Shown here one piece after another: positions 2,367 through 44,130 of a stretch of 44,130 bases of DNA. A program made the translations under genes and the position numbers. The stretch is taken from sequence record QB031380.1; one strand, written 5' to 3'. Every line of letters starts with the position of its first letter. Position 1 is the first letter of the stretch. This stretch comes from a phage. The notes under the pieces are model-generated. The model had not been told where the DNA came from and did not search any database. It saw nothing but the letters and a program-made list of their open reading frames with translations.

Positions 2367-2431
2367 AGCAACCAAGCCGAACGGGGTGGCTCACAATAAC
2401 CCCGATACATGTGAAAATGAGGAATTGGAAA

Positions 2432-3211
2432 ATGGCTAAAGTCAACCTGAAAAATGTGCGCGTATGTTTCCTTAAAATTTGGGAACGCGATACCCCTAAA
2501 CAGGATGGTCAAAAACCGGCATACCGTGCCGTGATTCTTCTGGATAAAGAAGATCCGCAGGTGGACAAAGTGGAAGCGGCAGCGCGCGCAGTGCTCACCG
2601 ACAAGCTGAAATCCGAGAAGAATGCCGATAAGTGGATGGACCGCCACTACGCCCAGGATTCTAAGGAATGCGCTGTTCGTGACGGTGACGAGCGCGACGA
2701 AGTAACCGAAGAATTTGAAGGCATGTTGTACATCAACGCCAAATCGTTCAAGCAGCCAAACATTCAAACGTCACTCGGCGAGAAGCAGACGGAACAAGGT
2801 CTGACCGTAGAAGGCGACGAGATCGAAGGCCAGGAGATCTACTCCGGTTGTTATTGCAACGTGTCCCTGGATATTTGGGCGTGGAACAATACCAACGGTA
2901 AAGGCCTCGGTGCGGGCTTACTGGGTCTTCGCTTCCGTGATGATGGTGAATCCTTCGGTGGTGGCGGTTCTTCCTGCTCCGACGAAGACCTGGACAACGA
3001 TGACGAAGATGAAAGCCCGCGCAAGTCCAAAAAGTCAAAACGTCGTGATGACGATGACGAAGACGACAAGCCGCGCAAGTCCAAAAAGTCCAAGCGCCGC
3101 GATGACGACGATGATGACGAAGACGAGAAACCTCGTAAACGTCGTAAGCCACGCGATGACGAAGATGAGGACGACGAAGACGAAGCGCCACGTAAACGTC
3201 GCCGCCGTTAA
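2432..3211 (+). CDS. DUF2815-like ssDNA-binding protein with repetitive acidic/basic C-terminal tail
   Basis: N-terminus MAKVNLKNVRV; position between DUF2800-like gene and PolA; track ORF starts at GTG 2411, ATG 2432 has a GAGGA RBS. Confidence 0.6.
   Translation: MAKVNLKNVRVCFLKIWERDTPKQDGQKPAYRAVILLDKEDPQVDKVEAAARAVLTDKLKSEKNADKWMDRHYAQDSKECAVRDGDERDEVTEEFEGMLYINAKSFKQPNIQTSLGEKQTEQGLTVEGDEIEGQEIYSGCYCNVSLDIWAWNNTNGKGLGAGLLGLRFRDDGESFGGGGSSCSDEDLDNDDEDESPRKSKKSKRRDDDDEDDKPRKSKKSKRRDDDDDDEDEKPRKRRKPRDDEDEDDEDEAPRKRRRR
2990..3205 (+). repeat. Tandem ~60 bp coding repeats (DDDDEDD-KPRKSKKSKRR units)
   Basis: Three to four near-identical nucleotide units encoding alternating acidic and basic blocks. 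Confidence 0.7.
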
Positions 3212-5728: not shown

Positions 5729-6006
5729 TGACACCAGAAGGCAAGATCCAAACTCACTTGATGAGACGGGTGAAAGCCGTCGGCGGATTCTGCCGCAAAG
5801 TGGCTTGGGAGGGGCGCGCAGGTGCGCCCGATCTGATTATCATCATCAACGGCAAGATAGTTTTCGTCGAAGTGAAGCGCCCAGGCGGTAAACCTAAGCC
5901 GCACCAGGTACGAGAACATGAGCGAATGGCCCGCCGCGGTGCGGACGTTCGCGTTATCGACAGCATAGCCGACTGTGATTTATTGGTTGCTGAATTGGTC
6001 GCGTAG
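5728..6006 (+). CDS. VRR-NUC domain nuclease
   Basis: 92 aa; GAPDLIII...VEVKRPGGKPKPHQ pattern typical of VRR-NUC; directly downstream of PolA. Confidence 0.7.
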   Translation: MTPEGKIQTHLMRRVKAVGGFCRKVAWEGRAGAPDLIIIINGKIVFVEVKRPGGKPKPHQVREHERMARRGADVRVIDSIADCDLLVAELVA

Positions 6007-8923: not shown

Positions 8924-8928
8924 ATTGG

Positions 8929-8957
8929 TTGCATAATCATATTGGTTGCATTATATT
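8929..8957 (+). promoter_or_regulatory. sigma70-like promoter TTGCAT-N17-TATATT embedded in two ATTGGTTGCAT copies
   Basis: Hexamers and spacing read directly; motif copies at about 8924-8934 and 8941-8951. Confidence 0.45.
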
Positions 8958-10146: not shown

Positions 10147-10613
10147 AACTACTTATTTGTGATCTGGATGGCGTTATTAATGGTTCAAGCGATGCGCGTG
10201 CCGACCTGGTGCCAGGGATAAAAACGAAATCCACCTTTTGGGCGAAGTGGCACAAAGCGCACGTCCGCGAAGACCTGAACATGGATATGCTGCCGCTGCT
10301 GCGCATGTATAAAGAGCAAGGCTTCGAGATCGCGTATCTGACCAACCGGCAGCGCGAATGCTGGGACACCACCGCCGAGCAATTGGAGGTCTTCCCGGTA
10401 GGCCGGTTGTTTATGCGCCACATGCTGGATGACACCCCGCCGCCAGAGTTTAAGGCGTGCGCCGTGTTCAAAATGGTCTGCTACGCGGACGTGTCGGAAC
10501 TGGTCATCATTGAAGATTGCGAGAAGAACATCGCGGCGATTCGTCGGGCGTGTGGTGATTTGGTCCCGAAAATTTACGCAATAAACGTTGCAAAATTCAC
10601 TTGCAACCAATAG
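10143..10613 (+). CDS. HAD-superfamily hydrolase-like protein
   Basis: N-terminal LICDLDGVI (HAD motif I DxDG), YLTNR (motif II), EDCEKN region. Confidence 0.5.
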   Translation: MKLLICDLDGVINGSSDARADLVPGIKTKSTFWAKWHKAHVREDLNMDMLPLLRMYKEQGFEIAYLTNRQRECWDTTAEQLEVFPVGRLFMRHMLDDTPPPEFKACAVFKMVCYADVSELVIIEDCEKNIAAIRRACGDLVPKIYAINVAKFTCNQ

Positions 10614-10631
10614 GTTGGTTGCACTATAGTA
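10602..10631 (+). promoter_or_regulatory. promoter-like TTGCAA-N18-TATAGT spanning palindrome TGCAACCAA-tagg-TTGGTTGCA
   Basis: Perfect inverted repeat of the 9-mer overlapping the hexamers. Confidence 0.4.
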
Positions 10632-11814: not shown

Positions 11815-11843
11815 AAAAAGGGGCCGTGCGGCCCCTTCGCATC
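11815..11843. terminator. bidirectional terminator between convergent genes
   Basis: AAAAAAA-GGGGCCgtgcGGCCCC-ttcgcat; the A-run gives a T-run on the minus strand. Confidence 0.6.
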
Positions 11844-13518
11844 ACGCTTTAGTCAGTGCAGCCACGGCAGCTTTCAATTCCTCCAGTTCTTTCTGCATAT
11901 CTTCCACCTTACGTCCCATGAACACCATCGCACACGCCATATCGGTTAATATGACATTACCGTCTAGTGCCAGTGTATCGTCGTAGTAGTCGCCGTCATC
12001 CGCGTTGAATCCTTCCGTACCTACCAGATCCGGGTCTTTAAGCGCGCCGGGAATAATCTTCACGTATTGCGGGTCGATTTTAACCAGATCCTGCGCGATA
12101 AGGCCGTAGCGCTGGATTTCAGACCCCTTATACTTAAACATTGTTGGCAGCCACTGCATCACCCGGTCGTAGCTTTCCTTCCCTTCCGTGTACTTAATGT
12201 CATGCTTTAAGTCGCGGTCGGACGTAGGCGCTTTCTGGAACGTGTAAGCGCCAAATGTACCACTGACCTGAATATCACAGGCGCTTACATCAAATTCAAA
12301 GTTTGTCCAGTTTTCGCCATCCCCTCGGCAGCGCAATGCTGCGCGGGGCCAGTCCGCCGCGCCTTGTGCGATCAGCCCCCACGTCGCGCGGATAGGCCAG
12401 CCACCAGTTGATCTTGAATGCCAAGAAATTGCTGGCACCCATCCGCCGTCATTCGCACTGACTTCGGACAGCCATACGCCACTTTCCCCATAGGTATTTG
12501 GTATGTCCCATCCAGTTTGGAAGCCTTCTGCGATAAGACGCTTACCCTCTATCCTCGACGCTGTGCCCCATTTATCTTGGCCCGCGTCATACAACCACGT
12601 GCGGCCTGCCGACCCCAGGCCACGCACATTAAGGGTGTCGTCAGGCCCGATGCCTAAGTGGGTGCGCGCTGCCGCGGGGTCCGCAACGTCGCTAAGGTTG
12701 TTGGACTTAGCCAGAAATTTCGACGGGTCAATCTCATTCTTAAATTGTTCAGCCTCGTCGCGAAACCCTCGCGCGGCATCGCGTGCGGCTTGCGCGTCTG
12801 TCTTCGCGGTATTGACTTCGTCGCGAATAGCGCCAGTATCCGTCTTAATCTGGTAGGTCTGGTCCTTGATGCCCTGCGTATCAGTCTTAATCTGGTTGGT
12901 TTGCGTCTTGATCGCATCGGTGGCGTCGTGGATCGCCTGCGTATCCGCCTTAATCTGGTTGGTGGCGTCGCGAATCCCCGCCGTCTCAGTCTTGAAGCCT
13001 TCGGCCTCATTGCGAAATCCTTGCGCGGCTGCTTCAGATGCCGCGGCTTGTTGTTGCAGGTTGCGCATTTCAACTGGGTCAATTTGCTTCATCAATTGCG
13101 ACAGGTAGCCCCATGACATACCCTGCATAACTTGCCCGTTGGGCAGCGTAACGGTGATCTCTTCAGCGTCGCCGAAGATTGCACGCCAGTTGTTTTCATC
13201 CGCAATCATCAAGCGCAATGCTTTCTGAGCCTGGACTGTTACGCCCATCGTCGCCAGAGACATGGTATCGCGCGCAACGCCATCCCACGCAAGGCCGGTT
13301 GCCGTAGGGCCGTCGAACGGCAGCACCAGCGTAATCGCGGTGTCGCTTTCGACGGACGCGATAGCAACAGTGTAAGGCACTTGCCCCACCACCAGAGTTA
13401 AGAAGTCGCCAGCATTAAACGCGGTAAACGTCGTGCCTACCCCGACAACCGCCTTGCTGTTATTCGTTACGGATAGTGTACCCGCTGCCATAGCTGAATC
13501 CTCATAAATTGGTTGCAT
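11842..13518 (-). CDS. tail fibre protein with C-terminal intramolecular chaperone (peptidase S74) domain
   Basis: 558 aa; central xIKxDTQ-type repeats; C-terminal TSDRDLKHDI motif and YGLIAQDL segment typical of the auto-cleaving chaperone domain. Confidence 0.75.
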   Translation of the reverse strand: MQPIYEDSAMAAGTLSVTNNSKAVVGVGTTFTAFNAGDFLTLVVGQVPYTVAIASVESDTAITLVLPFDGPTATGLAWDGVARDTMSLATMGVTVQAQKALRLMIADENNWRAIFGDAEEITVTLPNGQVMQGMSWGYLSQLMKQIDPVEMRNLQQQAAASEAAAQGFRNEAEGFKTETAGIRDATNQIKADTQAIHDATDAIKTQTNQIKTDTQGIKDQTYQIKTDTGAIRDEVNTAKTDAQAARDAARGFRDEAEQFKNEIDPSKFLAKSNNLSDVADPAAARTHLGIGPDDTLNVRGLGSAGRTWLYDAGQDKWGTASRIEGKRLIAEGFQTGWDIPNTYGESGVWLSEVSANDGGWVPAISWHSRSTGGWPIRATWGLIAQGAADWPRAALRCRGDGENWTNFEFDVSACDIQVSGTFGAYTFQKAPTSDRDLKHDIKYTEGKESYDRVMQWLPTMFKYKGSEIQRYGLIAQDLVKIDPQYVKIIPGALKDPDLVGTEGFNADDGDYYDDTLALDGNVILTDMACAMVFMGRKVEDMQKELEELKAAVAALTKA

Positions 13519-13795: not shown

Positions 13796-14761
13796 ATGGG
13801 CGCTGGAATACTTATCGACTACAACGACGGAAGGCCGGTGATGGAGATAACCGCCGGACTTCGCGCTCCGTCATACTGCACTACGTTTGATCAGCGCTGC
13901 CAGTCCGATAAGACGCTGACCATTAATACTCCGCTAACCCCAGGGTCTGATCTTGTCGTTGCGCTCACGCGTCCGGTAGAAGTGATTGAGGTCTTCGACC
14001 AAACGCTGGTGCTCCCGGACCCATTCTACGTTACGTCTGTACAACGTAACGGGGATAGCGGCATTATTCTACGAGGTGCGGACGCGTATAGCGCATACAG
14101 TGGTCTTCCGCAATGGGCTGGGATAATTATGGAAGTGCTGCCGGTTGGGTCGCGCAATGCTGGCTTACTGGTGGCGAACTCGACGGACTTCACCGCCATA
14201 ACTAACGTATCCAGGCTAATGACATGCCGATATGCGCAGCGCGTTCGCGTCAATGGGAGTATGGCATTGCCAGTCGGCGGTGTTCCGTTCGCGCGCTGGG
14301 ACGACGGCAACGTGTCGGTGGGATTCGATGGTGGTAGTATTATCGTCCGCAACGCGTCCTATGGTGGTATTGACGATGTGGCGGCTTCGGTGGATATGGA
14401 CCTAGTGATATTCAACAACACGCCGCCTTCACCGGGGACAGGCATTACCATGACTAACAACCAGGGACAGGTCACGTTCTCTACCGCTAACAAGCCGTTC
14501 GTCCTCAATTCCGTAATTAATATCGGCACTGGCGGTCAGAATATCGGCAACAGCCTCGTACAGCTTTCATATACTGGCGCGCTCATTGAGAACAACAGCG
14601 GATACAACCATGTGAGAATGAACGGGATACGCATGGCGGGAAACGTGGTTAGCGCGGCACGAAATCGCGTGGTCGGTAACTACTCACGGCAGCAATTCCA
14701 GATGCCTAACCGTAACGTGACCGTACCCACCCCGCTACTAGTCATCCCTAACATGTATTAA
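13796..14761 (+). CDS. hypothetical protein, co-transcribed with the lipoprotein
   Basis: ATG immediately after the lipoprotein stop; about 322 aa; no recognisable motif. Confidence 0.5.
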   Translation: MGAGILIDYNDGRPVMEITAGLRAPSYCTTFDQRCQSDKTLTINTPLTPGSDLVVALTRPVEVIEVFDQTLVLPDPFYVTSVQRNGDSGIILRGADAYSAYSGLPQWAGIIMEVLPVGSRNAGLLVANSTDFTAITNVSRLMTCRYAQRVRVNGSMALPVGGVPFARWDDGNVSVGFDGGSIIVRNASYGGIDDVAASVDMDLVIFNNTPPSPGTGITMTNNQGQVTFSTANKPFVLNSVINIGTGGQNIGNSLVQLSYTGALIENNSGYNHVRMNGIRMAGNVVSAARNRVVGNYSRQQFQMPNRNVTVPTPLLVIPNMY

Positions 14762-14790
14762 AAAGGGGCCGCATGGCCCCTTCGCATTTA
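14762..14790. terminator. bidirectional terminator
   Basis: AAAAA-GGGGCCgcatGGCCCC-ttcgcat, nearly identical to the terminator at 11815. Confidence 0.6.
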
Positions 14791-21002: not shown

Positions 21003-23645
21003 TCATCGTTTGTAAAGTACTCCACCCGGTTTCGTCGCTTTCACGATCTCGGCCTTCACCGCCTCGGTGATTTGCTTGCCGAAAGCCTGCGCTGTGCGTG
21101 GGTCTGGGCTGCTCACACTGGTGTCTGTTTTACCGGTCCCCGTGTAAACGTTAGTCGTCACGATCATACCCCCGCCTGCGACAGAAGCGGCAACGCCCAG
21201 TTTCCCGTCTGGCCCGCGCTTCAGCGGCATGATGGCCTCGGGGCCAGCCTCACCCATCAATCCTGCGCCCTTAGCGAACGCCTGGACGCCATAACTGAAA
21301 AAGGTGGGCTGGCTTACCACTTTCCCCGAATAGGCCGCGAGATTGCCCCCTGCGTACGCTCCGCCGTCCGCATTCTTAGTGAGGCCCGAGAAGATAGCGC
21401 CGAACAATCCGTTTTTGCCGCCGTCGCCACCGAAAGCGCTAACGATGGACTTGAATGCCTGCGATGTAGCCAGCTTGATTAACTCGCTCAGGATGGATTT
21501 AACCATATCCTTTGCATTCAACTTGCCCGTCTCGAAAAACTCGTTCATTGTGTCCTGCATAGCGCTGAATGTGAATTTCGTGAGCGATGCCATCTGCGTA
21601 TATCCGTTACCCATTTCATCCACGCTATCCTTAAGACCGCGGCTGAATCCATCCCATAGCGAGGCGTTAGCACCGGTCTGCGCCTCCTGCACTTCCCGCA
21701 GCTTAGACACGGCCTTGTCGATAGCGGTATCACTCGCGCCGACACGCTGCAAGCGGTCTATTAGCTGCAATTCTTCGCGCAGGTTAGACGCTTCGCGCGT
21801 AGACAGTGCGTAGCCCGCCGCGGTGGCCTTTAGCTCGGCGTTCTGATTCTTGAGGAACGCGTCAACCTGGGATTGGGCTTTGATCTGCTTCTCTTTCGCA
21901 TCTAGTAATTTGGCTTCTTCGACAATCTGCTCGCGCACTTCCTTCACGCGCCCAAACTCCGCCATCTGCTGCTTTTCCGCTGCCGTTAGCGCCCTTTCTT
22001 TGCTTGCGGCGATTAACTGCTCATTATCCGCGATTAGCTTGTTTAAGGCCGCTTGAGCGCGTTGCGTGCGGGTCTGCGCAGATGCGTTGGCTTCGATCTG
22101 CTTGCCCGATTCGCGAAGCTGGGCCAGTTCGCTACGTGCAACTTCCAGCATTTTCATACCGGCATCCACGCGAACAGCCGCAGCCTTCTTCGGGGCCGGG
22201 TCTTTGTAGCGCTCGTTTACCTGCTTCACCGCCTCGGCTAGTTCTTTCTCATTAATCACACCGCGCTTGTTCAGCAAATTGAGGCGGGCGATCTCGTCGG
22301 CGCGCCTCTTCGCGTTGGTGGCGAATTCCTTCTCAAATGCAGCGCGGTCGCGGGCGGCGCGGTTGGCCTCCTCGTTCGCCTTCGCCGATTCGTCCGCGGA
22401 GCGGGCGTTGTCACGCTCCGCGCGGTTGCGCAGAGTTAGCGACGCCACTACTTTCTCCTGGGCGACCAGTTCGCTGTAAAGCATGTTAATACGCGCTTTC
22501 TGCGCTTCGGTCATCACTCCGCCGGCAGCGTTTACCGCTTTCATCTCGGCATAGTAAGCCGTGGTCATGCGCTGCAAGGATTCACGCGCTTTCATCTCGG
22601 ACTCATTGGAGGACTGCGCGCGCCCAACATCCAGGATGGCATCCCACATTGATTTGGCTGCCGATGTGACGACGTTCATAGATCGCTCAAGCGTACCCAT
22701 GTTCGCCTTGATATCGTTTGTCATAGTGGTGAACGACGCGGCGGCGGTTTTGTTAGCCAACGCAACCGCATCTGTCTCGCGCCCCATATCCACCAACGAC
22801 TGCACCTGCTGGATCTGCGCTTCGGTTACAACGTGATACTTATCTGCCAGTGCGCGCAAACCGCCTACTGGGTCGTTTGACAATTTCGCCACCGACGAGA
22901 CCACGTCCTCAATAGGCTGGCCCGACGTCTTTGCAAAGTCATTAACCACCTTAGCTAACCCGCCGAAGTCCGCACCCGCTTTCACACCCGCCGCCGCCAG
23001 TGACTGAATTGTGTCACGCGTCTTGCGGAATGATCCGCCCATCCGCTCGGCGTTCTCAGATAGCACCAGGATCTGGTTAGCGGTGAGGCCAGAAATATTA
23101 CCGGAAAGCGCCAGCGTCTTGTTAAGCGCCGCCACTTGGTTTTCCGCGCGGGACATAATCGACACGCCAACGCCCATCGTTGCCGTTAATGCAGCGATGC
23201 CGATCCCTAACGGGCCGAGGGTGCCGACGACATAACGCAGCGTATTCCCCAACCCGCCAAACGCCCCAGTAAGCTGTGGTAGCTGCTGAAGCATGACTCG
23301 ATGCACCGGCATACCCATCTCAAGCGTTACCGCGATATCCTGTAACTGGAATGCGGCGTTCCGCGATGCGAACCCCAGGTTCTTGGTCGACATGCCTAAT
23401 CGGCTGGCGAGTCGCTCCTGTTTCGTCATGCCGTCGGCGGCGCGCTGCGATTCAGTCGCTAACTTTTCCATTCCGCCCGCGGCGTCGCCAGTAACCTTTT
23501 TCGACTTGCCGAGTGTGTCGTTTAATTTCTTTACTTTCTGTTCTGTGTTCTCGGATTTCTGCGCAAATGTGTCCAGCACAGTATTCGCCGTTTTAATTTG
23601 CGCGACGTCCGCCTTGAGCGTGATGCCCGCTGCCTGATCTGCCAT
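21003..23645 (-). CDS. tail tape measure protein
   Basis: About 880 aa, coiled-coil rich with Gly-rich hydrophobic segment; start taken at ATG 23645 with AAGGGGG RBS. Confidence 0.85.
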   Translation of the reverse strand: MADQAAGITLKADVAQIKTANTVLDTFAQKSENTEQKVKKLNDTLGKSKKVTGDAAGGMEKLATESQRAADGMTKQERLASRLGMSTKNLGFASRNAAFQLQDIAVTLEMGMPVHRVMLQQLPQLTGAFGGLGNTLRYVVGTLGPLGIGIAALTATMGVGVSIMSRAENQVAALNKTLALSGNISGLTANQILVLSENAERMGGSFRKTRDTIQSLAAAGVKAGADFGGLAKVVNDFAKTSGQPIEDVVSSVAKLSNDPVGGLRALADKYHVVTEAQIQQVQSLVDMGRETDAVALANKTAAASFTTMTNDIKANMGTLERSMNVVTSAAKSMWDAILDVGRAQSSNESEMKARESLQRMTTAYYAEMKAVNAAGGVMTEAQKARINMLYSELVAQEKVVASLTLRNRAERDNARSADESAKANEEANRAARDRAAFEKEFATNAKRRADEIARLNLLNKRGVINEKELAEAVKQVNERYKDPAPKKAAAVRVDAGMKMLEVARSELAQLRESGKQIEANASAQTRTQRAQAALNKLIADNEQLIAASKERALTAAEKQQMAEFGRVKEVREQIVEEAKLLDAKEKQIKAQSQVDAFLKNQNAELKATAAGYALSTREASNLREELQLIDRLQRVGASDTAIDKAVSKLREVQEAQTGANASLWDGFSRGLKDSVDEMGNGYTQMASLTKFTFSAMQDTMNEFFETGKLNAKDMVKSILSELIKLATSQAFKSIVSAFGGDGGKNGLFGAIFSGLTKNADGGAYAGGNLAAYSGKVVSQPTFFSYGVQAFAKGAGLMGEAGPEAIMPLKRGPDGKLGVAASVAGGGMIVTTNVYTGTGKTDTSVSSPDPRTAQAFGKQITEAVKAEIVKATKPGGVLYKR

Positions 23646-23710
23646 TATGCAGTCCCCCTTTTTTATGCAGTTGCCGTCGGTCATTGTATCAGCGAATTTA
23701 AAACAAACCT

Positions 23711-24030
23711 TATTCAGTCTCAGACGAGGGGGGCCATTGACCCCCGTCTAGTCTGAAAGACTGGGGGTTGTCCCGCCTGTCCCGATCGGCTAAAACCCGC
23801 GGCAGCACTGACGGGGACAGGGGTGCTGTCCCGCTTTGTCCCGCCTCATTCTGTCCCGCTTTTTGTCCCGCTTACTTTATGCAGAAAAACCGCATAGCTA
23901 TTCACTTTAAGGGGCGGGACAGATCGGGACAGCACCCCTGTCACGCTTTTAGTTTATGCAATGAAAGTGAGTATATATGCGGTTTTAATGGTGGCGGGAT
24001 AAAACGGTACGTCCCGCCTGTCCCGCTTCG
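23711..24030. repeat. Iteron-rich intergenic element, copy 1 (GTCCCGC in both orientations, GC hairpin, AT-rich segment)
   Basis: At least 10 GTCCCGC/GCGGGAC heptamers; 23711-23884 is near-identical to 40531-40705. Confidence 0.8.
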
Positions 24031-29589: not shown

Positions 29590-29619
29590 TTGCACTGCGG
29601 GAATTGGTTGCGCTATATT
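29590..29619 (+). promoter_or_regulatory. sigma70-like promoter TTGCAC-N18-TATATT with GGTTGC elements
   Basis: Hexamers read directly; ATTGGTTGCGC in the spacer and GGTTGCAC just after the -10. Confidence 0.45.
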
Positions 29620-29648
29620 GGTTGCACACCAACAACGAGGACACAAAA

Positions 29649-37028: not shown

Positions 37029-37091
37029 CTTGATTACTCCTCTTATTGGTTGGTTGCAGTATGGCCCCTATGTTGGTTGCAAGTCAAGCAA

Positions 37092-40319: not shown

Positions 40320-40347
40320 CGTTCAGTCCTCATGTTGGTGTGCAACC

Positions 40348-40376
40348 AATCTAGCAGGGTGCTGGCTCGAATGCAA
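40348..40376 (-). promoter_or_regulatory. sigma70-like promoter TTGCAT-N17-TAGATT flanked by TTGGTTGCA elements
   Basis: Minus strand reads ATTGGTTGCAT...TAGATTGGTTGCAC. Confidence 0.45.
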
Positions 40377-40530
40377 CCAATATTAATCATGCGCATGAAA
40401 AAGTTGATCGCTATCTGCTGTGACTGCAAACTGCATTTTTCGCACCACGTTCTGCATCTCGCATTGGTTGCCTAGTTCAGTGGCGACCGCAATCCGCAAC
40501 ATGCTGCCGTGTATTTTGCAATCCCGGATT

Positions 40531-40705
40531 TTATGCAGTCTCAGACGAGGGGGGCCATTGACCCCCGTCTAGTCTGAAAGACTGGGAGTTGTCCCGCCTG
40601 TCCCGCTCCTCGCCAGGCCGCGTCATCCGGGGCGGGACAGGGGTGCTGTCCCGCTTTGTCCCGCCCTTGGTCTGTCCCGCTTTTTGTCCCGCTTACTTTA
40701 TGCAG
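40531..40705. repeat. Iteron-rich intergenic element, copy 2
   Basis: Near-identical to 23711-23884; bounded by TTATGCAG at both ends; about 8 GTCCCGC/GCGGGAC heptamers. Confidence 0.8.
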
Positions 40706-40740
40706 TTTTATTGCATAACTATTCACTATATTTTTACTAC

Positions 40741-40790
40741 ACGGCAACCAATGCGACCGACTAAAAATACACAAAACGGCAACCAATGCG
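40741..40790. repeat. Direct repeat ACGGCAACCAATGCG x2 just downstream of the primase/helicase stop
   Basis: Two identical 15-mers about 34 bp apart. Confidence 0.6.
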
Positions 40791-40798
40791 CGCAAAAT

Positions 40799-43063
40799 TT
40801 AATCTTTCAGGTCGTCATCGGTAGCTGAAAGCGTTATGGGGATATCCGATTTGATGACTAAATTCGACGACCCATATATGGCCCCGGTGTGCGGATCTGT
40901 ATAAAAACCAATCACGCCGCGCTCGACCATATCGTCGATTGCCTTCGTCGAAGTACCACCCTTAGCGAGTCCCGCCTGGCGGACAATTGCCGATTTACTG
41001 AATCCAGTATGGTCCGGGTTATCTTCCATCAGTTTTTCCAGGGCCGCATAAAGCACTTTCTCTTTTTCGTTGCGCGGTCCGGCGGCGTTTTCTTCCTTAA
41101 CTGCAGCTTTGCCCGCGGCCTTCGCCTGTTCGATGGCGAACGGTGCCAGGGCGACCGGTACGAGGTACAGAGTCTCGTCGCGTGGCGTGGACGCAATTGG
41201 TTTAACGTCCCAACCGGCAACTACGTCGCCGAAGTCCGGCCCGGTGCTGGTGGACTGGTGCGACGCGAACGCTTCTGACTTGCGGAGATCTACCTTCACC
41301 TTGCACTTGAGCAGGACGAAGCCACGCGGCGCTTGCTTGATGCCATTACGTGATTTTTCGTGATACAGGTTAAGTTGTCCCGGCTGGTTGTCGTCCGGCT
41401 GTTCCAGGAAGAAAGCGGAATCGACAGCACCATGCAGTGCGCCGGACCCACGGGGAGATCTGCTACCGTTTGCACCCTTCGCAGGGTGGTGGATGACGCC
41501 CGCACTGCCGCCTGTGTTTTCCGCGATGGCTTTTAGCGCTTTAACCACTTCGCCCATATCGCTGGCGTTGTTCTCGTCAAACGGTTTAGCATCGGCGGAC
41601 CGCAGCGCAACAGTCTGGTTGAGTGAGTCGAACGCCACCAGGCCAACAGGTTCGCCGTTAGCGGTGCGGTTGATAAAGCTGATAACTTCGCGCAAACCGG
41701 ACTTGCTGGTGATATCCCAGCCGCGGGACTGCAGGTCTATAATGTGCAGCTTGTCCAGGTCGTGCTCGTATTTAATCTGCAATGCTTCTTTGCGCTGGTT
41801 GGAGGCTTCGCCGCCTTCCGCATCAAAATAGAAGCAATGCGACTGGACTACCTTCGCACCACCAAACGGAATACCAGCGGCAACCGCACCCATCTGCCCC
41901 AGCACGTAGAAGGACTTACCTATGTTCGACTCGCCCGCCATATACCAGGTCGATTTGAAGTTAATCAGCCCTTCGATGATCGGGTCGTGCTTGCTGAACA
42001 GTGCGACCGGCTCGTTATCCAGGTCTGCGTCCGTACATTCGCCGTATTCTTCGCCGTCGCCAACCGCATCAACAATATGATCATATAAGGATTCGACTTC
42101 CTCGTCGTCCAGACCTGGCAGGATGGCGGCGATTTGCTTACGTGACATGTTGTGTGGCTCGACGTTCAGGTGGTCCGGGATACCGATAAGACGTAGCGCC
42201 AGGTGCTGGTGTCTATTCAGCTCCGAGCAACACTCGTTGCCTGTGTGCATACACTTGAAACGGATCTCGCCATCCTTAACCATGATAGCCGTCGACCCTT
42301 CGCCGCTGTGCAGATGTTCGTTCGGGCACGGCACTTCATAACCGCGACCGGATGATAACTCCTCGAATCCTGCCTGGAAGCACCAGTCCAGAATGCCGTC
42401 TGCCACTGCGTCGTCGCCCTGGGTAAGCTCGCGGCGTACTTCCTCTTTCTCCACCCCCAGCTTGTCAGCCAGGCGGAGCAGACGCCGCACATTTGCACGT
42501 TTGCCGTAGTGACACTTAATGACAGACTGCTGGTGTGGCAGGTACATAAGACGGTTTGTGTCCTTCGTACAATCGTCGAAGTCCACATCTGACAGGCCCA
42601 GTTGGTGTAATAGCGCATACTGGACACGGCCCAGGTCTTCCGCCGGGACAGGCTTGTCAGTGAGTACCAGGAAGCGAGCGCAACGCGTTCCGCCTTTCAG
42701 TGGGTGGCGGTCGCCGGTGGTTGTGTGGAATACGTGCTCCAGCCCCGCGTCGATGAAAGCCTTACGGCAGCGGCGTAGGGTGCGGGTGTCGGTACGGTCA
42801 ATATCGAAGAACAGGATCGAGCGGTCCACCGCACTGGTCTTGCGGCGTAAGCCGTCACTGGTATACGCCACGATGCCATCGGCCTTACGCTTGCGGCGTG
42901 CATACTCGGCTTTATCTTCCGTCTTGTTGATATGCACCGAGGAGATTTCTTTCGCATCATTGATAAATTCGAAAAATTCATCGGTGGTCATCTGGAAGTT
43001 TTCCGCCCTGGCTTTTTCGCCTTTTTTAGCGGGTCTTGTTACAGCGAATTTAATTAAGCTCAT
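40799..43063 (-). CDS. DNA primase/helicase (primase-like N-terminal region plus RecA-like ATPase)
   Basis: 754 aa; Walker A GESNIGKS; Cys-rich middle segment. Confidence 0.65.
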   Translation of the reverse strand: MSLIKFAVTRPAKKGEKARAENFQMTTDEFFEFINDAKEISSVHINKTEDKAEYARRKRKADGIVAYTSDGLRRKTSAVDRSILFFDIDRTDTRTLRRCRKAFIDAGLEHVFHTTTGDRHPLKGGTRCARFLVLTDKPVPAEDLGRVQYALLHQLGLSDVDFDDCTKDTNRLMYLPHQQSVIKCHYGKRANVRRLLRLADKLGVEKEEVRRELTQGDDAVADGILDWCFQAGFEELSSGRGYEVPCPNEHLHSGEGSTAIMVKDGEIRFKCMHTGNECCSELNRHQHLALRLIGIPDHLNVEPHNMSRKQIAAILPGLDDEEVESLYDHIVDAVGDGEEYGECTDADLDNEPVALFSKHDPIIEGLINFKSTWYMAGESNIGKSFYVLGQMGAVAAGIPFGGAKVVQSHCFYFDAEGGEASNQRKEALQIKYEHDLDKLHIIDLQSRGWDITSKSGLREVISFINRTANGEPVGLVAFDSLNQTVALRSADAKPFDENNASDMGEVVKALKAIAENTGGSAGVIHHPAKGANGSRSPRGSGALHGAVDSAFFLEQPDDNQPGQLNLYHEKSRNGIKQAPRGFVLLKCKVKVDLRKSEAFASHQSTSTGPDFGDVVAGWDVKPIASTPRDETLYLVPVALAPFAIEQAKAAGKAAVKEENAAGPRNEKEKVLYAALEKLMEDNPDHTGFSKSAIVRQAGLAKGGTSTKAIDDMVERGVIGFYTDPHTGAIYGSSNLVIKSDIPITLSATDDDLKD

Positions 43064-43804: not shown

Positions 43805-44130
43805 ATGTTTGAGCAAATCGTAAACCTGATCACTCGCGGCGTAGTAGCACTGGAAACCATCGCAAAACATTATGAAACCGTGGGCGCTGCCGTTGGTAAG
43901 CAGGAAGACAAGAAGCCGTCTAAGGCCAAAAAAGAAGTTGTCGAAGATGACGACGCTGAAGACGAAGCACCGGCGAAAACCAAAAAAGCACCGGCGAAAG
44001 GTAAGGCCAAAAAAGAAGTCGTAGAGGATGACGACGAGGATGAATCCGAAGACGAAAAACCGGCGAAGGGTAAAAAAGCACCCGCGAAAGGCAAAGGTAA
44101 GAAAGATGCCGATCCGCTAGCAGAGATGCG
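43805..44130 (+). CDS. N-terminal part of an acidic/Lys-rich repeat protein (runs off the window end)
   Basis: ATG with GGAGA RBS; repeats of KKEVVEDDD and KAPAKGK; no stop before the window end; not in the ORF track. Confidence 0.5.
   Translation, partial: MFEQIVNLITRGVVALETIAKHYETVGAAVGKQEDKKPSKAKKEVVEDDDAEDEAPAKTKKAPAKGKAKKEVVEDDDEDESEDEKPAKGKKAPAKGKGKKDADPLAEM

Follow-up and report, generated by a model that had tools for sequence, protein, structure and literature searches.

Background

The alpha protein of satellite phage P4 combines a primase, an SF3 (D5-like) helicase and a C-terminal winged helix that binds short iterons. The P4 iterons form two clusters, ori and crr, that are separated by kilobases and contain sites of either orientation; crr is required in cis. 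In lambdoid phages, the DNA-binding domain of the O protein and the iterons are adjacent and are exchanged together, and origin recognition is lineage-specific. The oriV of RSF1010 (IncQ) contains RepC iterons beside G+C-rich and A+T-rich segments, together with the hairpins ssiA and ssiB, which serve as starts for the RepB' primase, and is served by the RepA helicase. [quoted passage not shown] Both are bound by gp38, and the late copy has been proposed to stall replication forks (PMC6316719, PMC3485210).

The DNA analysed here is a stretch of 44,130 nucleotides (sequence record QB031380.1), hereafter the window, which is essentially the complete genome of a Dhillonvirus, an HK578-like Escherichia coli siphovirus. 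It contains two similar repeat-rich elements in non-coding gaps, here called regions A and B. Comparison of sequences suggests that these elements are most likely a pair of uncharacterised origin-type iteron arrays of a kind known from SPP1, P4 and the lambdoid O/ori systems. As in SPP1, a siphovirus genome of ~44 kb holds two similar clusters of direct repeats, with one cluster at the putative initiator gene and the other among the late genes. The two systems differ in that gp38 is a separate protein that needs the loader gp39 and the DnaB-type helicase gp40, whereas the binder proposed here is the primase-helicase; in addition, oriL lies within a gene, whereas the array described here follows one, a G/C hairpin is not described for SPP1, and there is no sequence homology between the two.

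The observation of the two elements as such is not new, because the GenBank record of Sodalis phage SO-1 (NC_013600) already annotates a 'region A' of 384 bp before the tape-measure gene and a 'region B' of 480 bp after the helicase-primase gene. According to that record, both regions hold direct, inverted and palindromic repeats and resemble each other. This phage is congeneric, and its two regions, which exist as annotation only, correspond to the two elements described here. In the literature on SO-1, HK578, YD-2008.s, eiAU, the BASEL collection and Dhillonvirus, we found no account of the repeats and none of an origin, and no origin of replication was found described for the Dhillonviruses and their Kagunavirus-like relatives in the literature searched. 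A 2026 preprint treats HK578 gp45 and gp46 as replication-initiation genes and does not name an origin.

Organization of regions A and B

The repeat region matches 159 phage records at 77–98% identity, nearly all of them at two places per record. In the window, the genes run in the order primase-helicase, region B, small genes, lysis genes, terminase, head and tail genes, tail chaperones, region A, and tape-measure and tail-tip genes; the replication genes stand apart as a block with divergent transcription. The preliminary description, made from the sequence alone, had named the neighbouring genes correctly and misread their strand: the genes flanking both elements are all on the minus strand in the ORF list. 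It had also rightly placed copy A between the chaperone stop and the tape-measure start. That start is probably not the one of the longest ORF (23684); length-matching to annotated relatives points to 23645, and the non-coding region is 23646–24030. The features of region A are as follows.

23646..24030, minus strand: region A, non-coding gap of 385 bp from the tail-assembly chaperone stop (DUF1799 ORF, 24031) to the tape-measure start (23645) (ORF list, Pfam)
23683..23691, minus strand: TGATACAAT, extended -10-like, ~40 nt upstream of the tape-measure start (read from sequence)
23711..23884, minus strand: copy A of the duplicated core, heptamer array and hairpin module (self-alignment; kept in 18 Dhillonvirus genomes)
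23715..23763, minus strand: hairpin module A, gene-sense CAGTCTTTCAGACT-AGACGGGGG-tcaatgg-CCCCCCTCGTCT-GAGACTG, a small palindrome and a bulged G-arm/C-arm hairpin (ssDNA folding)
23770..23871, no strand assigned: copy A heptamers, GTCCCGC at 23770, 23828, 23838, 23853 and 23865, GTCCCG at 23779, inverted GGGGAC at 23813
23891..24026, no strand assigned: extra sites peculiar to region A, beyond the interval first described
23891–23905: 15-mer-like CGCATAGCTATTCAC
23912–23946: inverted partial copy (self-comparison, inverted repeats I1 and I2)
23954: TTATGCA
24011–24026: GTCCCGCCTGTCCCGC, site pair

Region A is A+T-rich only in patches, and region B includes an A+T-rich stretch between the primase-helicase stop and the array.

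40320..40798, minus strand: region B, non-coding gap of 479 bp from the primase-helicase stop (40799–40801) to the start of the next gene (40319)
40348..40376, minus strand: promoter-like TTGCAT-17 nt-TAGATT for the genes that follow region B; two ATTGGTTGCA boxes overlap it (read from sequence)
40531..40705, minus strand: copy B of the duplicated core (self-alignment)
40536..40584, minus strand: hairpin module B, which in this window does not differ from module A
40591..40692, no strand assigned to the array: copy B heptamers, GTCCCGC at 40591, 40600, 40648, 40658, 40674 and 40686 (plus strand) and at 40632 (minus strand)
40706..40798, minus strand: A+T-rich stretch of ~90 nt, from the primase-helicase stop to array B
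40712–40726: conserved 15-mer GTGAATAGTTATGCA, within the A+T-rich stretch
40744–40752 and 40779–40787: two ATTGGTTGCC boxes, within the A+T-rich stretch

The duplicated cores

Global alignment of the two cores (23711–23884 and 40531–40705) gave 155 identical columns out of 177. Self-comparison of the window resolved three collinear blocks at an offset of ~16,821 bp (23710–23815 versus 40531–40636, 85%; 23814–23845 versus 40634–40665, 100%; 23850–23909 versus 40671–40730, 87%). These results bear out the near-identical duplication, 16.8 kb apart, that had been reported from the sequence. Relative to transcription, the two copies point the same way. Read on the gene-sense strand, either core shows TGCATAAA, followed by two direct GCGGGACA sites 12 bp apart; next come two sites 10 bp apart, the second of which belongs to the inverted pair GCGGGACAG-cacccc-CTGTCCCGC, and a variable centre of ~30 nt; at the end, two direct sites 9 bp apart precede the hairpin module, which has the form CAGTCTTTCAGACT-AGACGGGGG-loop-CCCCCCTCGTCT-GAGACTG.

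Against an expectation of 9.2 ± 2.8, the window contains 21 copies of the heptamer GTCCCGC, a number reached in none of 100 shuffles, and 15 of the 21 occurrences fall in 23770–24026 and 40591–40692. Such clustering of a short motif in non-coding DNA, well above chance, is what iteron origins display. The heptamers of each copy are both direct and inverted, as first reported, whereas the reported number of about eight was too high: with the relaxed core CGGGAC/GTCCCG, there are six sites in copy A and seven in copy B. The other elements of the preliminary description were largely recovered. A GC-rich imperfect hairpin is present in each copy (GACGAGGGGGG-ccattga-CCCCCGTC at 23723–23748 and 40544–40569), as is the short AGTCT/AGACT palindrome, with a spacer that reads gaa (AGTCT-gaa-AGACT at 23750–23762 and 40571–40583). 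The inverted pair GCGGGACAG-gggtg-CTGTCCCGC is exact in copy B (40632–40654) and one base off in copy A. Similarly, the bounding motif TTATGCAG was found at 40531, 40698 and 23877, while the left end of copy A reads TTATTCAG. With 1–2 mismatches to TTATNCACA, TTATGCAG might be taken for a DnaA box, which is speculation.

The elements could instead be devices of transcription control, namely regulator sites or roadblocks that bound operons, with the hairpin acting as a terminator or attenuator. Region B would then divide the early transcript of the primase-helicase from the genes for lysis and the late genes, and region A would precede the tape-measure and tail-tip genes. Both elements, oriented alike, interrupt series of genes that point one way, and a promoter-like site follows each. 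After region A this is TGATACAAT, which is kept in all A copies and was not called by the consensus scan, which demands both hexamers; after region B it is TTGCAT-17-TAGATT, in which HK578 and Ioannina have TATATT in place of TAGATT. A terminator is annotated at the upstream edge of region A in the HK578 record, and a role in transcription is plausible for the regions as a whole. We nevertheless consider it unlikely that transcription control explains the elements. A U-tract after the hairpin is absent on both strands, and scans for sigma-70 promoter and intrinsic-terminator consensus sequences returned no match within either core. An Rfam scan of the whole window likewise returned no covariance-model match at the gathering score. 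On these points, the original remark that the elements are not explained by promoters or terminators was confirmed. In addition, the motif associated with promoters genome-wide is another one (ATTGGTTGC), and the early promoter region contains no heptamers.

Conservation within Dhillonvirus

Conservation in related phages had been proposed as a check on the duplication, and both copies are indeed kept at the same two loci in all 18 Dhillonvirus genomes compared, with 6–7 sites per core. All 18 genomes have the SPP1-type dual arrangement of two similar clusters, one at the putative initiator gene and one in a late-gene gap. Among these genomes, orthologous copies are 0.84–0.88 identical and paralogous copies ~0.65, indicating that the duplication is older than the diversification of the 18 genomes and that each copy has been kept separately. 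Concerted evolution of regions A and B is slight (identity of 0.66 within the same genome versus 0.64 with other genomes), and the two agree in the tight or spaced form of the palindrome in 14 of the 18 genomes. The spacer of the inverted pair is 9 nt long in some genomes and absent in others. The columns common to A and B are those of seven heptamers, TGCATAAA and the hairpin stems; the spacers, the centre and the hairpin loop are free to vary across the genus. This pattern fits a set of putative protein-binding sites accompanied by a structural hairpin. In a consensus RNA fold, the terminal hairpin alone was paired and the direct repeats were single-stranded.

The same data bear on the idea that the repeat is selfish or passive, that is, a miniature mobile element, a recombination hotspot, a pac or partition site or a chance duplication. 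The TTATGCAG-like 8-mers that flank both copies do resemble a target duplication, and several GenBank assemblies start or stop within region A. However, there are only two copies, which occupy fixed loci and have persisted from a time before the genus diversified. The flanking TTATGCA belongs to the conserved 15-mer, which also occurs in the single-copy arrays of other genera, and breaks in short-read assemblies are to be expected at a 175-bp repeat. The terminase genes lie ~5 kb from region B and ~10 kb from region A. We rejected a pac or cos site in region A on account of the repeat-induced assembly break and the distant terminase genes, and regard a selfish or passive origin of the elements in general as very improbable.

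Arrays in more distant relatives

Edwardsiella phage eiAU (Eiauvirus) has large non-coding gaps at both corresponding loci, and a 40-nt block is common to the two gaps at 90% identity. Region A of eiAU contains a homologous hairpin (GAGACGGGGGTG...CACCCCTCGTC) preceded by G+C-rich repeats of its own. The eiAU heptamer CGCCCCG is tentative as a motif, because it is not enriched genome-wide (18 found versus 17.5 expected); the block shared between its regions A and B is solid.

In Kagunavirus-like phages and metagenomic contigs, whose primase-helicase is ~44% identical to that of the window, there is a single array, located directly after the primase-helicase stop codon and built on the same architecture as those of the window. 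Its layout comprises the 15-mer GTGAATAGTTATGCA twice, direct, inverted and again direct sites, a small palindrome, the G-arm/C-arm hairpin and TTATTCA. The repeated motif varies by lineage, being GGGGGAGA, TCCGACA, AGGGATAA, CGGACAA, GGGGATGA, TTGCGAGT or GGGGATC. Four Kagunavirus-like loci have no array after the gene, and a terminator and reverse-strand sequence are found there. The array is also absent from the Jerseyvirus and VerenaMeyer loci, which are uninformative because a reverse-oriented HTH gene follows the primase-helicase. In two unrelated contigs (L097 and L122), a CGGGACA array is located at the 3' end of an AAA_25 primase-helicase gene, and the L122 protein gives weak C-terminal matches to MarR/IclR HTH domains, below the Pfam cut-offs.

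The primase-helicase as candidate binder

The gene next to region B encodes the protein that we propose as the binder of the heptamers.

40799..43063, minus strand: primase-helicase, 754 aa, proposed heptamer binder (Pfam, PHROG, AlphaFold, Foldseek, covariation)

The protein has an N-terminal primase-like region (PHROG primase matches at residues 15–177), a Cys/His cluster near residues 246–273, an AAA_25 (RepA-like) helicase domain at residues 357–531 (Pfam) and a C-terminal predicted winged helix at residues ~673–740. In the AlphaFold model of residues 630–754, the fold is H-H-H-strand-wing-strand with a mean pLDDT of 71.5 (78–89 in the core), and all Foldseek matches of the C-terminal 125 residues were to winged-helix structures, such as those of MarR, IclR, histone H1 and ORC, at E values of 0.014 or higher. 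A winged helix can also serve protein contacts. A primase, a helicase and a predicted C-terminal winged helix thus occur in one polypeptide in the same order as in P4 alpha, and, as in P4, two iteron clusters are present. Unlike that of P4 alpha, the helicase is of the AAA_25/RepA-like RecA fold and not SF3, and the P4 iteron is TGTTCACC; the resemblance is one of working mode, not of family membership. In sequence searches against the PDB, P4 alpha was not matched, RSF1010 RepA was matched weakly (E = 0.46 with a single sequence, 0.07 with a profile), and a match to the repeat protein BurrH was dismissed as likely spurious. A search of a plasmid database for a minimal replicon with the primase-helicase yielded only a phage-sized record and two distant helicase-only matches.

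We divided the primase-helicase into domains and determined the percent identity of each region between lineages (L083, L088, L090 and L091), with a C-terminal region of ~70 residues.

L088 versus L090 (CGGACAA versus GGGGGAGA): N-terminal 98, Zn/linker 97, helicase 98, C-terminal 42
L091 versus L090 (TCCGACA versus GGGGGAGA): N-terminal 86, Zn/linker 95, helicase 93, C-terminal 52
L083 versus L091 (both TCCGACA): N-terminal 76, Zn/linker 74, helicase 82, C-terminal 83

The motif type follows the C-terminal predicted winged-helix domain and not the rest of the primase-helicase. At the DNA level, divergence is limited to the coding sequence of the C-terminal domain and the iteron/hairpin block. 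The 15-mers form a conserved island between the diverged coding part and the iterons, and high identity resumes past the hairpin. This joint divergence of the binding-domain coding region and the array between relatives resembles that of lambdoid O/ori. Unlike the protein studied here, lambda O is neither a helicase nor a primase, its binding domain is N-terminal and its iterons lie inside the O gene.

The other candidate named in the preliminary description, an HTH regulator, fared less well than the primase-helicase. L090, L087 and L091, which have three different motifs, encode one and the same small XRE-type HTH protein upstream, which therefore cannot set motif specificity; moreover, the small protein at this upstream position changes family across genera (HTH_23 in Dhillonvirus, HTH_3 elsewhere). 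That the motif follows a domain of a replication protein and not the HTH regulator is a further argument against transcription control. The idea of a multi-site array for a DNA-binding protein is supported by the sequence comparison, and covariation of the motif with the C-terminal domain points to the primase-helicase as the probable binder.

Because the C-terminal coding region adjoins array B, a single swapped DNA cassette could yield this covariation without any functional link. Region A, however, lies 16.8 kb from the gene and, across the genus, has the heptamer of region B, and at the homologous sites eiAU shows a shared block of its own. The break before the C-terminal domain recurs in at least two separate swaps. 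A real functional link is favoured by this recurrence and by the unlinked region A having kept the heptamers of region B.

The hairpin

As single-stranded DNA, hairpin module A folds at -11.4 to -12 kcal/mol (z ~ -3) on either strand. The hairpin sequence is lineage-specific, and a hairpin folds in every lineage (z of -1.5 to -3.3). The T/A positions of its arms co-vary (for example, GGTGG/CCACC, GGGGTG/CACCCC and GGGGG/CCCCC). The automatic count of covariation across lineages was weakly positive, its weakness being attributable to the MAFFT alignment used, which is not structural.

Such features would also be expected of an RNA element, whose hairpins, once transcribed (GCGGGACAG...CUGUCCCGC and the long G-arm/C-arm), would work in cis to direct processing, stabilisation or antitermination, like HK022 put or T7 RNase III sites. 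A stable hairpin (z ~ -3) kept in every lineage with a different sequence, the joint shift of the T/A positions in its two arms and the shared sense orientation of the two copies, which an origin does not require and an RNA element would, are all in keeping with this explanation. On the other hand, the hairpin folds equally well on both strands, Rfam gave no match, and the consensus fold supports the terminal hairpin only, with most heptamers being unpaired direct repeats. The spacer of the inverted pair ranges from 9 nt to none between genomes, and an RNA element leaves unexplained why the direct-repeat motif follows the winged-helix domain. We therefore regard an RNA element as improbable, more so than transcription control.

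A proposed model of origin function

The reading that we prefer, with a probability of roughly 0.6, is that the two elements are origin sequences of the iteron type, used by an initiator that the phage itself encodes, which would be the 754-aa primase-helicase. As the comparison between lineages suggests, the C-terminal winged helix would recognise CGGGAC heptamers, arranged in direct pairs 9, 10 and 12 bp apart and one inverted pair. By analogy with the systems described above, several protomers may assemble on the array beside the A+T-rich stretch, and the RepA-like helicase may load itself. More speculatively, the G-arm/C-arm hairpin at the downstream edge might be extruded after melting and provide a structural or priming signal for the primase domain, and a conserved factor, possibly from the host, may recognise the TTATGCA motifs or the 15-mer. 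The combination of iterons, a hairpin and a RepA-family helicase is shared with RSF1010, from which the conjectured priming role of the hairpin is borrowed. RSF1010 differs in that its proteins are three separate ones, its iterons measure 20 bp and its two hairpins lie on opposite strands, as opposed to one per copy in the same orientation.

Of the two elements, region B is most likely the working origin, as suggested by its widely conserved position directly after the primase-helicase stop. Region A, an old second copy, may serve either as a second origin, as an enhancer looped to region B or as a tightly bound site that stalls forks and aids the switch to concatemers. The SPP1 precedent would suggest a second origin or a fork barrier, and that of P4 an enhancer acting in cis. 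GC skew, a weak test in a phage genome of 44 kb, follows the direction of transcription and does not mark an origin: its sign switches only at changes of gene orientation, not at 23.7 or 40.6 kb.

Implications

With SPP1, P4 and lambda as close precedents, the biology proposed here is unsurprising in kind. Its interest lies partly in the phages themselves: Dhillonviruses and their Kagunavirus-like relatives are common phages of E. coli and Salmonella that are used in collections, as therapy candidates and in studies of defence systems. A defined origin and recognition domain would allow plasmid replication assays and the rational swapping of domains and iterons, and would help to interpret defence-escape mutations in the primase-helicase, such as those of HK578 escapers of OLD.

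A broader proposal, which we put forward tentatively and consider well short of an even bet, is that the winged helix, the iterons and the hairpin together constitute a single 'replicon-specificity cassette', exchanged among otherwise near-identical primase-helicases, that would let co-infecting relatives replicate independently. In Dhillonvirus and Eiauvirus, the second cis copy among the tail genes, with the initiator bound to it, might then time the switch to concatemers, either as a programmed fork barrier or as a second loading site, and perhaps couple tail-gene expression to replication. Cassette-like exchange of a binding domain together with its sites would provide a clean natural experiment on the evolution of replicon specificity.

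A putative promoter or operator motif in the intergenic gaps

The motif ATTGGTTGC(A) occurs at 29 sites in the window, against 12.4 expected, when up to one mismatch is allowed. These sites lie mainly in intergenic gaps, are mostly paired, and overlap -35-like TTGCAT and -10-like TATATT/TAGATT hexamers.

Sites of ATTGGTTGC(A) in the window
5982-6002
8924-8949
10603-10622
13508
29603-29625
37049-37080
39787
40342-40381
40463
40744-40787
43593

The Edwardsiella phage eiAU has a kindred form, GTTGGTTGC, and others, GTTGGCTGC and GTTGGCAGC, are present at Kagunavirus-like loci. The motif does not track the family to which the small HTH protein encoded upstream of the primase-helicase gene belongs. 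It has the appearance of a promoter or operator motif used throughout the genome.

Other repeats in the window and in other contigs

Two copies of AAAAAGGGGCCGyryGGCCCCTTCGCAT, separated by 2.9 kb (11815-11842 and 14760-14787), are located at the gene-orientation switches that flank the lateral tail-fibre block, and look like bidirectional terminators. Tandem periodic repeats of 21/42 nt (GTATCCGTCTTAATCTGGTWGG...) were also found at 12836-13003, within a 558-aa tail-fibre ORF on the minus strand. Runs of GATGACGACGA-type repeats at 2997-3177, 36-63 and 43921-44043 encode acidic, Asp/Glu-rich stretches; one is inside the ORF at 2411-3211, the position of the ssDNA-binding protein gene in relatives, and another is close to the early divergent region.

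The direct repeat CGGGACAAAAACGGGACA is present in many unrelated IMG/VR contigs (including L094, L106, L114, L119 and L121), often directly 3' of an apparent tRNA 3' end and 5' of a gene, and resembles integrase arm-type or attachment-site repeats. L093, L095 and L116 contain 10-12 GGGACA/GGGCCA sites adjoining an A+T-rich tract.

Several GenBank 'complete genomes' have their first or last base within region A, the array-bearing gap beside the tape-measure gene: LR990702 (Maverick), MZ234029 (CHD5UKE2), OX460974 (Kente) and KF772233 (eiAU). Most simply, these record ends represent assembly breaks at the 175-bp repeat rather than physical genome ends.

A conserved 15-mer and related TTATGCA motifs

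The 15-mer GTGAATAGTTATGCA, which differs from a DnaA box by one or two mismatches, is kept even in genera whose iterons are wholly different, and Kagunavirus-like arrays contain two copies each.

Locations of GTGAATAGTTATGCA
Window 40712-40726 and 23891-23905
L005 (a compared locus) 12718-12750
L083-L092 (Kagunavirus-like loci/contigs), directly 3' of the primase-helicase stop codon

Some Kagunavirus-like lineages (L079, L080, L084 and L086) have no array 3' of the primase-helicase gene; in its place stand two hairpins that resemble terminators, and beyond them lies reverse-strand sequence.

The related motifs TGCATAA/TTATGCA number 16 in the window (5.5 expected), 7 of them within or adjoining region A or region B, the gap 3' of the primase-helicase gene. 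One TGCATAA overlaps the probable tape-measure start codon at 23645.

Longest tape-measure ORF
21003-23684, minus strand, start at 23684

The ATG at 23645 is favoured over this start by the 2643-nt length annotated in relatives and by a GGGGGA Shine-Dalgarno-like sequence.

The retention of GTGAATAGTTATGCA across genera and the excess of TGCATAA/TTATGCA suggest that the 15-mer or these motifs may be recognised by a conserved, possibly host, factor.
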